Below, in pieces: positions 28,124-32,460 of a stretch of 56,182 nt of DNA. The position numbers and the translations under genes are program-made. The stretch is from positions 1 to 56,182 of the forward strand of contig JBLHMK010000003.1 in assembly GCA_047621945.1 (NCBI GenBank), written 5' to 3'. The notes beneath the pieces are model-generated. The model saw only the letters and a program-made list of their open reading frames with translations. It searched no databases and was not told the DNA's origin. The stretch comes from Flavobacteriaceae bacterium. GTDB taxonomy: Bacteria > Bacteroidota > Bacteroidia > Chitinophagales > UBA8649. The first letter of the stretch is position 1. Each line of letters opens with the position of its first letter.

Positions 28124-28131
28124 TAACTTTG
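28124..28131 (+). promoter_or_regulatory. -7 element TAACTTTG for menG-porT
   Basis: Exact match; it overlaps the ORF-track TTG at 28129, which favours GTG 28165 as the true start. Confidence 0.55.
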
Positions 28132-28164
28132 CTGAGAATTTTACTTAACGTAAAGCTAGCAACC

Positions 28165-28893
28165 GTGAATCAACACATAAAGCCTTATCACAAAGATGGC
28201 GAAGGAAAGAAAGAAGAAGTTGAACAGATGTTTGACAATATTGCTCATCGATATGACTTCTTAAATCACCTGCTATCTGCAGGAATTGATCGTCTGTGGC
28301 GAAAAAAAGCCATTAAACACATTGCTTCTTATCAACCGAAACGGATCATGGACATGGCAACGGGTACAGGCGACTTTGCCATAGATGCTGTTAACATGTT
28401 GCAGTTAGATGAAGTAATAGCCTTAGATTTGAGCGAGGAAATGCTGGCAGTAGGTCGTAAGAAGCTGAAAAAAGATGAACATAAAATTATAGAATTCGTT
28501 AAAGGAGATAGTGAGAGTTTAAGCTATGAATCAAACTCTTTTGATGCTATGACCGCTGGATTCGGTGTTCGGAATTTTGAAAACTTAGAAAAGGGGCTTT
28601 CTGAAATGTATCGGGTTCTAAAACCGGGTTCCCCCTTAGTAATTCTTGAGGTTTCGCAACCTGACAATAAATTTTTAAAAGCAATATTTAGTATTTATTT
28701 TAAAGGTATTCTTCCTCTGATTGGTCGCTTGTTTAGTAAAGACCATCGAGCATATACCTATCTGCCAGAATCTGTAGAGGCTTTCCCGAAAGGCAAGGAT
28801 TTTACGGATATTTTAAAAAAAGTGGGCTTTACAGATGCTAAATACCAAGCTTTGACGTTAGGTATATGCGCAATGTATTTATGCGAAAAATAA
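28165..28893 (+). CDS. menG: Demethylmenaquinone methyltransferase UbiE/MenG
   Basis: [27 protein letters not shown] and AYTYLPESV motifs. Confidence 0.92.
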
Positions 28894-29567
28894 TCATTAC
28901 CATATTAGCTATGTTTATAGTCCTTGGACTGGAAGCTCAAATGAATTACCTAGAAAAAGGTAATAAGTTGGTGTACTTCGGTATTGCTATTGGTGTAAAC
29001 TATGGCGATTATAAAGTAGTACGTAAACCTAAGCTAGGGGCTTTGCAAACGGATAGTGTCAAGTTGATTAGTTCTAAATTTGGTCCTGGGTTTGACCTTG
29101 GTATTATAGGTAATTTGCAATTTCACAAGTATTGGGATCTTCGCTTGGTGCCCACTTTAAGCTTCTCAGACAAGTCCGTAGAATTTACAGATCAAGATGA
29201 TAATAATGTAACAAAAACGGTTTCGTCCATATATTTGAGCATGCCATTATATTTGCGGTACAAATCAAAACCGATTAAAGACTTTCGATTTTTCGTTTTG
29301 GGTGGGTTGCGTTATAACTATGATTTGAATTCAAATTCGAATGAAAGAAATACCGAAACTCAATTGCTAGTGAACAAACATGATATTGGAGCAGAAATGG
29401 GCTTTGGTTTTCAAGTGTTCTTTCCAAGCTTTGTTTTATCACCTGAGATTAAGGTTTATCATAGTTTAAGTAATATTAAAAAGCCTAATGAGGCTTTAAT
29501 CTATTCCAGAGCAATCGATAAAATGTTCTCAAGAATATTCACCCTAACTTTTAATTTAGAGGGCTAA
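28881..29567 (+). CDS. porT: Type IX secretion system outer membrane protein PorT/SprT
   Basis: PGFDLGIIGNL, DLRLVPTLSF and LSPEIK motifs; C-terminal LTFNLEG; directly after ubiE/menG, as is usual in Bacteroidota. Confidence 0.8.
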   Translation: MRKIIITILAMFIVLGLEAQMNYLEKGNKLVYFGIAIGVNYGDYKVVRKPKLGALQTDSVKLISSKFGPGFDLGIIGNLQFHKYWDLRLVPTLSFSDKSVEFTDQDDNNVTKTVSSIYLSMPLYLRYKSKPIKDFRFFVLGGLRYNYDLNSNSNERNTETQLLVNKHDIGAEMGFGFQVFFPSFVLSPEIKVYHSLSNIKKPNEALIYSRAIDKMFSRIFTLTFNLEG

Positions 29568-30181
29568 TGCCTGTTATCCGCGAACTCAAAAATCAAGACT
29601 ATCATCTGTTAGTATGGAAGATTACTGAGGATCTCTCTTTTTTCGCCAAAGAAGTTTTATTCAATAAATCAGAAATGGAGGAGTATGGAAACATTTCCCA
29701 TGAATCGAGAAAATTAGAATGGCTTGCCGCTCGGTTCGTTCAGCGGCAATTATGCAAAGATGCATTAGTAAAAGATACTTGGGGAAAGCCTCATCTTGAA
29801 AATGAAGATGGTTTTGTTTCAATAGCTCACTGTCATGGCTATGCAGCGGCAATCTACTCTTCGAAACAAGCAGTAGGAATTGATATTGAGCCCATCCATG
29901 ATAAAGTACAGCGAATCGCACAGAAATTTTTAAGTGCTAGCGAGCTGAGTTTCATAAACACTGCCGGACAAACTGAACATCTTATCACTTGCTGGAGTAT
30001 AAAGGAAGCGATTTATAAGTGGTATGGTAAAAGAGAACTTAGTTTTAAAGAGAATATTCGCATAGAAAACTTTGAGCTAAATGATGATAAAACTTCCGTA
30101 CTATTCGTTCGAGAAAATGAACGAGAGATTAAGGAGGTTAATTTCGAAAGAATAGCGAATCTCGCCTTGGCTCATACTTAA
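29567..30181 (+). CDS. 4'-phosphopantetheinyl transferase (Sfp-like)
   Basis: GKP, SIAH, VGIDIE and WSIKEAIYK motifs. Confidence 0.9.
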   Translation: MPVIRELKNQDYHLLVWKITEDLSFFAKEVLFNKSEMEEYGNISHESRKLEWLAARFVQRQLCKDALVKDTWGKPHLENEDGFVSIAHCHGYAAAIYSSKQAVGIDIEPIHDKVQRIAQKFLSASELSFINTAGQTEHLITCWSIKEAIYKWYGKRELSFKENIRIENFELNDDKTSVLFVRENEREIKEVNFERIANLALAHT

Positions 30182-30222
30182 GAATTGTGACAATTATCGC
30201 TTTAAGAACCTTTATAAATTGC

Positions 30223-30230
30223 TAACTTTG
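30223..30230 (+). promoter_or_regulatory. -7 element TAACTTTG heading the small ORF-mbnP-mbnH unit
   Basis: Exact match 5 nt before GTG 30236. Confidence 0.6.
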
Positions 30231-30235
30231 TCAAC

Positions 30236-30598
30236 GTGAAGGAGTTGTTCGCATATTTCTTGTTAGTTTTATTTGCTGCTATGAGTTTACAGCAGGCAAC
30301 TGTTGCTGCGGTTTTCTTTTCTAATCAAGACTATGTAACGGAAAAGTTTTGTGTGAATAAAGATAAACCGAAGCTAAACTGCAAAGGGAAATGTCATATG
30401 AAAAATATGCTTGTCCAAACAGCAGAAAAAGAAACCCAAAACGCTCCGCTCAACGTTGAAGTCATGATACCCGTGTTCTTTTGCGAGTCAACAATCGAGT
30501 TTCCAATTTTATTGGTTTCTGAATTCGTTCAGATTCAGAAGAATCGAATACTTTATGACTCTTATGAAAGTTGGATGTTTCAACCTCCCAGGGCATAA
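30236..30598 (+). CDS. Small membrane-anchored Cys-rich protein; candidate metal-responsive leader (CruR/DUF2946-like logic)
   Basis: N-terminal hydrophobic helix, CVNKDKPKLNCKGKCHM, C-terminal WMFQPPRA-stop. Confidence 0.7.
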   Translation: MKELFAYFLLVLFAAMSLQQATVAAVFFSNQDYVTEKFCVNKDKPKLNCKGKCHMKNMLVQTAEKETQNAPLNVEVMIPVFFCESTIEFPILLVSEFVQIQKNRILYDSYESWMFQPPRA

Positions 30599-30670
30599 TA
30601 GATTATTTCGCTATTATTATTGAAACATTATTAAACCCTATTGGGTATATCAACTTATTAAAAGAAAATT

Positions 30671-31381
30671 ATGAAAAATATATTTTTTGCAATCATGAGT
30701 ATTGCATTATTGAGCTTGACAGCTTGTTCAGAGGAAGCAGGAGAAGGAATTTTAACTTTAAAGTATGCTGCTACAGTGAATAGTGAAAACCTAGAATTGA
30801 ATAAAACTTATGTAATGGACGGTGATTCTGTGTACTTTACATTGCTTCAATATTACACCTCTGATATCTTTATTGAAGATAAAGATGGAACTACAGAAAC
30901 TGAGATCATGGACGTATCGTTTATTGATTTCTCGGAAGAAAGTTCTTTAGAATTTAGTACAACATTGGAGGCAACGGCATATAAAAACCCGAGCTACACA
31001 GTTGGTTTATCGGATACAAGAGGTGCAGCAGATCCTAGTTCTTTCGGAAGTGATCATCCTATGAGTTTGAACAGAAGTATGTTTTGGATTATGTCGAATT
31101 CTTATATTTATTTCAAAATAGAAGGATTCAGAATTAAGAACGGAATCGAAGAACCACTTGTTTATCATGTAGGGTTAACTGGCTATGGAGAAAACAAACA
31201 AGCTCAAAAGGCGTTTTCTATTAATGATGGTAATACAACTACTTTAGTCACTACTTTAAATTTAAACGAAGTGTTTGGAAATATTGATTTTGACACAGAA
31301 CCAGAAACGCATCAGATGAACAACATGCCACTTGCTCGAAAAATGATGACTAATTTTGCAAATGCATTAAGCGTTAATTAA
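30671..31381 (+). CDS. MbnP-family putative copper-binding lipoprotein
   Basis: Lipobox LSLTAC; LQYYTSDI, HPMS...MFWIMSNSYIYFKIEG, LVYHVG and ETHQM motifs; directly upstream of a di-heme bCcP/MauG-family gene. Confidence 0.75.
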   Translation: MKNIFFAIMSIALLSLTACSEEAGEGILTLKYAATVNSENLELNKTYVMDGDSVYFTLLQYYTSDIFIEDKDGTTETEIMDVSFIDFSEESSLEFSTTLEATAYKNPSYTVGLSDTRGAADPSSFGSDHPMSLNRSMFWIMSNSYIYFKIEGFRIKNGIEEPLVYHVGLTGYGENKQAQKAFSINDGNTTTLVTTLNLNEVFGNIDFDTEPETHQMNNMPLARKMMTNFANALSVN

Positions 31382-31383
31382 TT

Positions 31384-32460
31384 ATGGAAAACTCTTTTAG
31401 GTATTTTATATTATTCTTTGTTGTGTTAAGCTTTATGCTTAGCGGATGTAAAGAAGATGTGCCTTTCAATGAGAAATATGACGGTACACTTTTTGATTTT
31501 CAAAAGGTGTATCGTTTTCCTGCTATAGATATTCCACCAGACAATCCTTTAACGATTGCTAAGGTAGATTTAGGTAGAAAATTGTTCTACGACCAGCAAG
31601 TATCTAAAAGTAAAACGATGAGCTGTGCTACTTGCCATAACTTGGAAGATTCTTTTACTGATAACGGTTTAGTTTTATCTACTAATGACCTTGGAGGCCT
31701 CACAAAGCGAAATGCCACTCCATTGTTTAATCTTGCTTGGACAGATAAGGGATTCTTTTGGGATGGTCGTGTTATGACTCTTGAAGAAGCAGTGGAAGAT
31801 GCTGTGAATAATGAACAACATCCGGAATGGGGGGGCACTTTAGCAAGTTTACAAGACGATGAGACGTATAACCTAGAGTTTTCTCAATCGTTTACAAATG
31901 CGGAAGTGAGTGAGGAAAATGTAATTAAAGCGATTGCTTCTTTTCTTCGAATTATCGTCTCTAAAGATTCAAAATATGATCAAAGTGTGAGAGGTCAAGC
32001 TACCTTATCTGCTCTTGAACAAAAAGGTTTCGATTTAATATTTACTACTGAGTTTGGAGATTGCTTTCATTGCCATGGGGTATATCCATTTATGACCGAT
32101 AATGACTTTCATGATAATGGACTTCAAGATGCACCAAATCTTTCAGACTATGCAGATCAAGGGTTAGGCGGATTTAATGGAGTTACTACAGATGTTGGAA
32201 AAATGAAAGCTCCACCTTTAAGGAACCTTTCCTATACTGCTCCTTATATGCATGATGGTCGTTTTAACACATTAGATGAGGTGATTGATTTTTATAGCGA
32301 TGGTTTACATGTTACACCCAACATTGATCCTTTAATGAAGCAAGCATTGCAAGGGGGATTGCAATTAAGTGTACAAGAAAAAGCAGCTTTAAAGGCATTT
32401 TTACTGACATTAGATGACCCCACTTTCATCAATAATGAAGACTATAAGAGTCCATTTTAG
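31384..32460 (+). CDS. Di-heme cytochrome c peroxidase/MauG superfamily lipoprotein (MbnH-like)
   Basis: Heme motifs CATCH and CFHCH; LGRKLFYD, FFWDGR, PPLRNL and APYMHDGRF; lipobox MLSGC. Confidence 0.88.
   Translation: MENSFRYFILFFVVLSFMLSGCKEDVPFNEKYDGTLFDFQKVYRFPAIDIPPDNPLTIAKVDLGRKLFYDQQVSKSKTMSCATCHNLEDSFTDNGLVLSTNDLGGLTKRNATPLFNLAWTDKGFFWDGRVMTLEEAVEDAVNNEQHPEWGGTLASLQDDETYNLEFSQSFTNAEVSEENVIKAIASFLRIIVSKDSKYDQSVRGQATLSALEQKGFDLIFTTEFGDCFHCHGVYPFMTDNDFHDNGLQDAPNLSDYADQGLGGFNGVTTDVGKMKAPPLRNLSYTAPYMHDGRFNTLDEVIDFYSDGLHVTPNIDPLMKQALQGGLQLSVQEKAALKAFLLTLDDPTFINNEDYKSPF

Follow-up and report, generated by a model that had tools for sequence, protein, structure and literature searches.

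A small open reading frame (ORF) of 120 amino acids (aa) stands directly ahead of the genes for an MbnP-family lipoprotein and an MbnH-like di-haem enzyme in the stretch of Bacteroidota DNA analysed here (contig JBLHMK010000003.1 of assembly GCA_047621945.1, 56,182 nucleotides (nt), hereafter the window). We propose, with a probability of about 0.6, that this ORF is a cis-acting, metal-responsive ribosome-arrest leader of the mbnP–mbnH operon and the Bacteroidota counterpart of the copper-responsive leaders CruR and CutF. It is from the analogy with these two systems that we infer both a ribosome pause at the terminal Pro-Pro (PP) codons and a response of the leader to copper.

An earlier, sequence-only reading of this region had listed a promoter box, the ORF, a Cys cluster, a proline tail, a spacer and the two downstream genes, and all of these elements are present where it had placed them (Table 1). 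The 120-aa ORF itself contains each of the parts singled out there, namely an N-terminal helix, the cluster C39-x9-C49-x3-C53-H54-M55 and a terminal FQPP, after which only R-A and the stop codon (30596–30598) follow. Neither Pfam nor NCBIfam yielded any match to the ORF at E ≤ 0.1. A word-indexed search with the window ORF returned 15 relatives, in whose alignment D32, E36, F38, C39, N41, K42, K44, P45, L47, C49, G51, K52, C53, H54, M55, V80, P90 and F115-Q-P-P118 are invariant. When a profile of this small alignment was run against 1.84 billion cluster representatives, it matched 5164 proteins at E ≤ 1e-3, of which 601 reached E ≤ 1e-10. A profile search of 301 sampled genomes of the phylum found the family in 109, representing 58 of 144 genera and often carrying two or three copies each. 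The ESM-Atlas clusters nearest to the window ORF are unnamed and mainly from Bacteroidota. None of 136 aligned family members has a meaningful Pfam or NCBIfam match, DUF2946 included, and members of the family would therefore currently be annotated as 'hypothetical'. A chance open frame or a mis-called start before mbnP might be suspected from the GTG start codon and from the frequency of the TAnnTTTG promoter box, which is no commoner in the window (79 occurrences) than in shuffled sequence (76 ± 8); this suspicion is refuted by the thousands of homologues, by invariant residues over the whole length of the protein and by the conserved position of the start. Judged by this conservation, the 120-aa ORF is a real gene, with a chance ORF excluded.

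The conserved features are concentrated in the Cys motif and at the very end of the protein. In the 136-row alignment, C39, N41, C49, G51, C53 and P118 are the sole invariant positions. The sequence-only reading had proposed Cys, His and Met together as metal ligands: the three Cys of this set hold in all 136 relatives, but the His-Met part falls away, position 54 being His in 94 of 136 and position 55 Met in 16 of 136. The motif C-x-N-x7-C-x-G-x-C is found in every one of the 152 proteins of a library set (P0001, P0002, P0004 and P0016–P0164, other near-identical first matches having been left out). As that reading had anticipated, the terminal PP is kept among homologues: it lies within the last 25 residues in 149 of the 152 library proteins and within the last 15 residues at 139 of 141 loci of the independent, genome-derived set, the two remaining loci showing a 17-residue extension past QPPK in one case and a stop-codon interruption in the other. 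As also expected, the distance that separates the Cys motif from PP is kept within narrow limits, with 64–69 residues from the last Cys to the first Pro in 132 of 149 library proteins and a distance of 62–71 in 84 of 87 members of the genome-derived set. Two to four residues follow PP in 116 of 149 library proteins and at 125 of 139 genome loci. The consensus of the tail is Y/F at position −7, I/V at −3, F at −2 (106 of 149) and H/Q at −1 (100 of 149), then P-P and, after it, mainly Q, R, K or E. The linker that connects the Cys motif to this tail is weakly conserved in sequence and fixed in length.

Modelled by AlphaFold with the 136-row alignment, the window ORF forms helices at residues 2–29, 31–38 and 52–68 and shows zero secondary structure over residues 69–120; the mean pLDDT (predicted local distance difference test) is 80 and the pTM (predicted template modelling score) 0.41, without a compact fold. 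Across the 136 relatives, the flank that precedes the helix carries a mean net charge of +1.2 and the 15 residues that follow it one of −0.6, with the N-terminal flank being the more positive one in 103 of 136; this crude charge test favours an N-in/C-out orientation, with the Cys motif beyond the cytoplasm. Three invariant Cys following a membrane anchor that is predicted to expose them outwards would also befit a stable, inner-membrane-anchored periplasmic copper-binding accessory protein, which would act in trans as a chaperone or hand-over partner for MbnP/MbnH, a TonB-dependent receptor (TBDT) or SCO1 and use PP as a structural or interaction motif. Such a protein would agree with the mean pLDDT of 80, with a length of ~120 aa that exceeds that of most leader peptides, and with the co-location of its gene with those of periplasmic copper proteins. 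We nevertheless consider it unlikely, since the stretch of residues 69–120 is without predicted secondary structure, the pTM is low, and the linker between Cys motif and PP varies in sequence while staying constant in length.

The genomic context of the family was assessed on 141 deduplicated loci (the window being left out), at each of which the first following ORF of 100 aa or more on the same strand was scanned with Pfam; the sampled genomes are kin to one another, and locus counts are non-independent events. At 111 of the 141 loci the gene next after the leader is of a copper- or metal-uptake type, that is, a TBDT, MbnP, a YtkA-like lipoprotein, a MetA-like porin or SCO1 (Table 1), which bears out the expectation that the family would be found upstream of mbnPH, TBDT or metal genes. 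Three operon types recur. The second gene encodes MbnH at 14 of 14 MbnP loci and a TBDT at 9 of 11 YtkA loci, and the order leader-porin-SCO1 is seen at 11 of 12 porin loci, the twelfth (L084) having no second same-strand gene; several first genes without a Pfam match precede a receptor, MbnP or SCO1. The spacer between leader and cargo has a median of 114 nt (interquartile range 72–185) and measures at most 300 nt at 131 of 141 loci. In seven genomes, two leaders share a strand at a distance of 2–4.5 kb, and each of them heads a unit of its own (Table 1). At the 141 loci the leader stands directly ahead of varied same-strand cargo and not among the cargo genes, and two copies can head two units in one cluster; both observations speak against a stable accessory protein that acts in trans. 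As a side observation, one two-leader copper cluster consists of leader-SCO1 followed by leader-MbnP-MbnH. The unit of leader, Phenol_MetA_deg-type channel and SCO1, for its part, recurs at loci L094–L096, L101, L102, L104, L110, L122, L124, L137 and L141, and looks like a TonB-independent route of copper entry that feeds cytochrome oxidase assembly.

The same loci bear on a further alternative, in which the membrane protein senses metal and signals to a regulator or transporter, either as a dual-function or as a trans-acting regulator, and the PP tail merely slows translation for membrane insertion. An AraC-type gene does follow the leader at 2 of 141 loci, and CutF-like proteins are stated to be non-isofunctional, some of them, such as CzcI, having no Pro motif (PMC9973294). 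However, two loci in 141 do not make a regulator gene a regular neighbour, and the near-invariance of PP at a fixed position at the end of the protein (139 of 141) exceeds what a general slowing signal would need, and we regard this alternative as quite improbable.

In the window, MbnP-like and MbnH-like genes had been predicted 72 nt past the ORF on the same strand, and both are recovered there by Pfam matches to MbnP and CCP_MauG. The first scores 87.6 bits against PF20243, above the gathering cut-off of 27, and 20.2 bits against the NCBIfam equivalog TIGR04052, below the cut-off of 140. The second scores 150 bits against PF03150 (cut-off 25.6) and is closest to the MbnH-family model TIGR04039, at 225.8 bits and under the cut-off of 362.85; by these scores its product is MbnH-like rather than an MbnH equivalog.

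We next consider the start of the transcript. A TAnnTTTG box 5 nt before the ORF was part of the sequence-only reading, and this position is kept in homologous loci: an exact box ends 3–6 nt (mode 4) before the leader start at 31 of 139 loci, 24 of these 31 having a GTG start, and the count rises to 52 of 139 when one mismatch is allowed. By way of control, 1680 ORFs of 150 aa or more in the window's genome were checked, and 44 of them have a box 3–6 nt ahead of the first start codon. Between the ORF and mbnP (30599–30670) there is, as claimed, neither an exact TAnnTTTG nor a plus-strand terminator-like site, and among the downstream-gene starts of the 141 loci none has an exact box within 60 nt upstream, which argues against a separate promoter of this type directly before mbnP and leaves room for other sigma factors. 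In Flavobacterium johnsoniae the G of the box is reported to lie at −5 and the transcription start 4–5 nt after the box (PMC6847099). Taken with the box-to-start distance of 3–6 nt, this rule predicts that the leaders are translated from the 5′ end of the mRNA: the transcription start of the window leader is predicted at the GTG or 1 nt before it, and the leader mRNAs of the family are probably leaderless. Transcripts with a short leader or with none are uncommon in the phylum, with reported shares of 3.7% in Bacteroides thetaiotaomicron (PMC7366714) and 5.5% in F. psychrophilum (PMC9723704). A second copy of TAACTTTG is found at 28124–28131, where it overlaps the first TTG of a ubiE-like methyltransferase ORF (28129–28893); the true start of that gene probably lies further downstream.

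Table 1. Features of the leader locus, genes that follow the leader at 141 family loci, genomes with two leaders, and the DUF6660 ORF of the window's genome
Feature	Position, loci or pairs	Strand	Remarks
−7 promoter box TAACTTTG	30223–30230	+	5 nt before GTG at 30236
Small ORF, 120 aa, GTG start	30236–30598	+	Candidate metal-sensing arrest leader, unnamed Bacteroidota family
N-terminal membrane helix, residues 2–29	30239–30322	+	AlphaFold, hydropathy; N-in/C-out predicted
Cys motif C39-V-N-K-D-K-P-K-L-N-C49-K-G-K-C53-H54	30350–30397	+	Proposed metal-binding sensor
F115-Q-P117-P118	30578–30589	+	Proposed ribosome-arrest site; PP codons 30584–30589
Intergenic spacer, 72 nt	30599–30670	+	No −7 box, no terminator-like site
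MbnP-family lipoprotein gene, 236 aa	30671–31381	+	Lipobox LTAC; Pfam PF20243, E 1.3e-24
MbnH-like di-haem MauG/CCP-family enzyme gene, 358 aa	31384–32460	+	Lipobox LSGC; PF03150 (CCP_MauG), E 9.8e-44
Next same-strand gene: TonB-dependent receptor	46/141 loci		
Next same-strand gene: MbnP	31/141 loci		
Next same-strand gene: YtkA-like lipoprotein	18/141 loci		
Next same-strand gene: Phenol_MetA_deg-type outer-membrane channel (MetA-like porin)	13/141 loci		
Next same-strand gene: SCO1/SenC	3/141 loci		
Next same-strand gene: AraC regulator	2/141 loci		
Next same-strand gene: other	3/141 loci		
Next same-strand gene: no Pfam match	25/141 loci		
Two-leader pairs (genome)	L047/L049 (G042), L032/L064 (G226), L036/L069 (G286), L013/L072 (G066)		
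Two-leader pairs (genome), further	L043/L073 (G110), L077/L083 (G037), L027/L054 (G242)		
DUF6660 ORF, window's genome (G000)	C159:3804–4136 (locus L148:1498–1830)		GTG 4 nt after TATATTTG

A tail of the same type occurs in a second family. The named ESM-Atlas cluster nearest to the window ORF, at a score of 0.90 that serves as a lead only, is DUF6660 (PF20365), a Bacteroidota family for which a literature search returned no paper. A sample of 12 members from genomes of the window's order shows proteins of 94–110 aa whose N-terminal helix ends in PC[SA]D and is followed by a His-rich stretch, the cluster CSPFCxCxCC and the tail I-W-Q-P-P-K-[IL]-S, the distance from the Cys cluster to PP being 40–50 residues (mode 42). 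An exact −7 box precedes the start codon by 4–5 nt in 6 of the 12, and the adjacent gene encodes an RND pump (ACR_tran) in 10 and a TBDT in 2. In an hhalign comparison of the two families, just the last 24 columns align (...I[FW][QH]PP[KRQ]; probability 69.5%, E 4.2e-5). The window's own genome has a DUF6660 ORF (Table 1) with a His-rich stretch, CSPFCICACC and IWKPPKIS before the stop codon, followed by an RND (ACR_tran) pump gene. Small ORFs that combine a hydrophobic N-terminus, at least three Cys and a hydrophobic-x-PP within the last 12 residues number exactly two in this genome, namely the window ORF and this DUF6660 member, and both start with GTG, 5 and 4 nt, respectively, after a −7 box; the DUF6660 ORF looks like an efflux-side leader with the tail type of the window ORF. 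The motif [FW][HQ]PP is seen once in this genome against 2.8 expected, numbers too small for a judgement.

DUF6660 resembles the window's family as a small, probably leaderless ORF with an N-terminal helix, a Cys cluster and PP 2–4 residues before the stop codon that comes first before metal transport genes. It differs in its sensor part, in a Cys-to-PP distance of 40–50 rather than ~66 residues and in its RND efflux cargo, which suggests the opposite regulatory logic. From these alignments, a tail common to two unlike sensor domains that head metal operons fits an arrest module and would be difficult to account for if it belonged to a folded domain; its recurrence in DUF6660, whose members head efflux pumps and are unrelated outside the tail, is a further point against a stable accessory protein. 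We tentatively extend this, at somewhat less than even odds, to a phylum-specific arrest module (...[YF]xxx[IV][FW][HQ]PP[KRQ], 1–3 further residues and a stop codon) that is carried on leaderless mRNAs by at least two unrelated Cys-rich transmembrane sensors, the family described here gating copper uptake (TBDT, MbnPH, YtkA-receptor and porin-SCO1) and DUF6660 gating heavy-metal efflux pumps. If so, co-translational control by the pioneering ribosome would extend over much of envelope metal homeostasis in a phylum that lacks Shine-Dalgarno sequences.

In the arrest-leader model for the window ORF, the leader mRNA would be translated from its 5′ end during ongoing transcription. The helix would insert N-in, and the Cys motif would reach the periplasmic side at about the time when the ribosome, ~66 residues further on, meets the PP codons and arrests, P117 and P118 then occupying the P site and the A site, respectively. 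The ribosome exit tunnel holds ~30–40 residues, and at arrest the Cys motif would be 64–78 residues back, just past the tunnel plus the membrane crossing; the requirement to clear both would explain why the spacing is ~66 here as compared with 45 in CruR and ~42 in DUF6660. Binding of copper to the Cys motif, or folding of the motif, would alter the duration of the arrest, and the stalled lead ribosome would keep the 72-nt spacer and mbnP available. This could be achieved in a CruR-like manner, with the stalled ribosome shielding the transcript from Rho, or alternatively by the stalled ribosome holding an A-rich start region without a Shine-Dalgarno sequence unfolded. For an uptake operon, CruR logic would predict arrest and expression when copper is scarce, and release and shut-off when copper is present. 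The window's genome encodes both rho and efp.

Several points weigh against this model. In the presence of EF-P, whose gene the window's genome carries, a plain PP is normally read through, and [FH/FQ]PP is a motif without demonstrated arrest activity. The length of 120 aa and the strong conservation of helix and Cys motif would be compatible with a stable protein as well, and the pLDDT of 62–81 in the C-terminal half is above the very low values typical for disorder. Both the arrest and the copper response are argued by analogy, and the kinship of the sampled genomes inflates the counts. Moreover, spacer folds and terminator-like hairpins revealed no conserved RNA device that would join the stall to the next gene. 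Measured against mononucleotide shuffles, a weaker control than dinucleotide shuffles, the spacers between leader and cargo have a mean structure z of −2.0 (n = 116). In this they do not exceed the other junctions at these loci, for which the means are −1.2 upstream (n = 67) and −2.8 where the first downstream gene is followed by the second (n = 40; Mann-Whitney p = 0.076). In the minimum-energy fold of the window, the W-M-F-Q codons pair with the spacer (z −2.1, 7 of 200 shuffles being as good), a result that applies to the window only.

An intrinsic-terminator attenuator was also considered and was rejected as a general feature, hairpins being found in 13 of 132 spacers, where shuffles predict 4.8, and in 5 of 42 control spacers. 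In the window, a terminator-like hairpin (CAGCAG-loop-TTGCTG, then a T-rich run) lies within the 5′ part of the small ORF, at 30290–30308 on the plus strand and 55–73 nt downstream of the predicted transcription start; it may have arisen by chance, as the residues encoded there vary among relatives. Terminator-like sites in the region number 4, versus 1.8 ± 1.4 in shuffles. A mild, rut-like skew of C over G amounts to a small C excess at 30382–30511 only. At L015, L016, L033 and L046, the F-H codons UUUCAU before PP pair with the downstream AUGAAA start in the minimum-energy folds, for which codon usage could account.

One metatranscriptome run, in which 11% of the sampled words were present, provided two contigs on the stretch, at 30027–30209 and 30455–30588. 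The run is kept as contigs, which puts starts, strands and levels beyond reach and makes the lack of a contig on mbnP or mbnH uninformative on expression. The second contig, of 134 nt, has a depth of 11 and zero differences, and adaptor sequence abuts position 30455. Its other end, 30588, is the second base of the P118 codon. A-site cleavage on stalled ribosomes is a known phenomenon; the position of this end may be a coincidence, given that contigs cannot prove RNA ends and that the source could be DNA.

Directly upstream of the leader, the plus strand carries at 28866–30181 a PorT/SprT type IX secretion gene (NF052311, E 2.7e-53) and a gene for a 4′-phosphopantetheinyl transferase. In two genomes of the genus (L002 and L006), the leader is likewise preceded by an ORF of equal length (204 aa).

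To our knowledge, copper-responsive arrest leaders have been experimentally shown in Proteobacteria only, with CruR and CutF as the two cases. The closest parallel in other arrest leaders is with those that monitor protein export and precede secA, secDF or yidC: these likewise combine an N-terminal membrane or secretion signal with a C-terminal, Pro-containing arrest site, and force acting on the nascent chain relieves their arrest. They differ from the family in monitoring export and in having no Cys motif, and the Bacteroidota ones end in Pro-stop rather than in PP followed by 2–4 residues. Fujiwara et al. describe arrest-type upstream ORFs in Bacteroidota only before secA/secDF, ending in Pro-stop.

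CutF of Rhodobacter capsulatus is described as sensing copper in the periplasm while it is exported co-translationally, and as stalling at a Pro motif at its C-terminus; copper enhances the stalling, which melts a stem-loop over a Shine-Dalgarno site and so controls a detoxifying multicopper oxidase (PMC9973294; bioRxiv 10.1101/2025.02.05.636593). Periplasmic copper sensing fits the proposed outward-facing Cys motif of the family, which, unlike CutF, has uptake cargo, no Shine-Dalgarno site and a spacer structure within the control range. From rule-filtered jackhmmer matches, Ozturk et al. 2023 compiled 5334 'CutF-like' small PP-ended proteins, 19% of them from Bacteroidota and with TonB-like and RND neighbours (PMC9973294). 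With 120 aa, PP at residues 117–118 of 120 and a 72-nt spacer, the window ORF agrees with the rules applied there; as to the signal peptide that these rules call for, the hydrophobic helix 2–29 with its N-in charge bias looks more like an anchor than like a cleaved signal. The list may include this family or DUF6660. The sequence-only reading had spoken of an undescribed system, which is too strong: its kind is known from CruR and CutF, and PP-ended 'CutF-like' proteins of Bacteroidota are already among those listed (PMC9973294).

The arrest-leader reading, if correct, bears on several wider questions: how a stalled ribosome couples to downstream expression without Shine-Dalgarno sequences, what role leaderless initiation plays in arrest switches, and how MbnP/MbnH-type copper acquisition is regulated outside methanotrophs. 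A literature search on MbnP in Bacteroidetes and Flavobacter returned nothing on this leader. In addition, for many receptors and porins whose substrate is unknown, the presence of the leader would point to copper as the probable import.

The system most similar to the one proposed here is CruR (Bp2923) of Bordetella pertussis, the prototype of DUF2946/PF11162 (Roy et al. 2022, PMC9426467). CruR is reported to need both its CXXC motif and RAPP and to shield the transcript from Rho without copper (PMC9426467; PMC12992588), and toeprinting places its arrest at RAPP, where the two Pro codons occupy the P site and the A site (PMC12992588). The operon cargo of DUF2946/CruR in Proteobacteria includes TBDTs, Sco, PCuAC and MbnPH-like genes (PMC9426467). 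Like CruR, the family is encoded by a small gene that opens copper-uptake operons, begins with an export signal or N-in/C-out helix, and keeps its Cys motif at a constant distance from a terminal x-x-P-P that ends ~3 residues before the stop codon. Also shared are the cargo types TBDT, Sco and MbnPH-like, and a spacer of tens to more than 100 nt. The two differ in the sensor (CXXC versus C-x9-C-x3-C), the tail (RAPP versus [IV]F[HQ]PP) and the spacing (45 versus ~66), and the family, unlike CruR, occurs in a phylum without Shine-Dalgarno sequences on mRNAs predicted to be leaderless. CXXC was looked for in the family motif and is absent; so is a RAPP tail, the window ORF ending in FQPP-RA-stop with PP at a CruR-like position 2–4 residues from the stop. 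PF11162 matches neither the window protein (E ≤ 0.1) nor any of the 136 relatives (E ≤ 0.01), nor anything in the genome. In the published surveys, CruR homologues are listed from Proteobacteria and a few Planctomycetes, Firmicutes and Deinococcus, with none reported from Bacteroidetes (PMC9426467), and RAPP/RGPP upstream ORFs of copper-related genes are reported to be lacking in Bacteroidota (PMC12992588). Collectively, our results suggest that the family works analogously to CruR and CutF yet, by Pfam model and motifs, lies outside DUF2946, and that, being present in about one third of the genomes sampled from the phylum, it would fill the Bacteroidota gap by means of another sensor motif and another tail.

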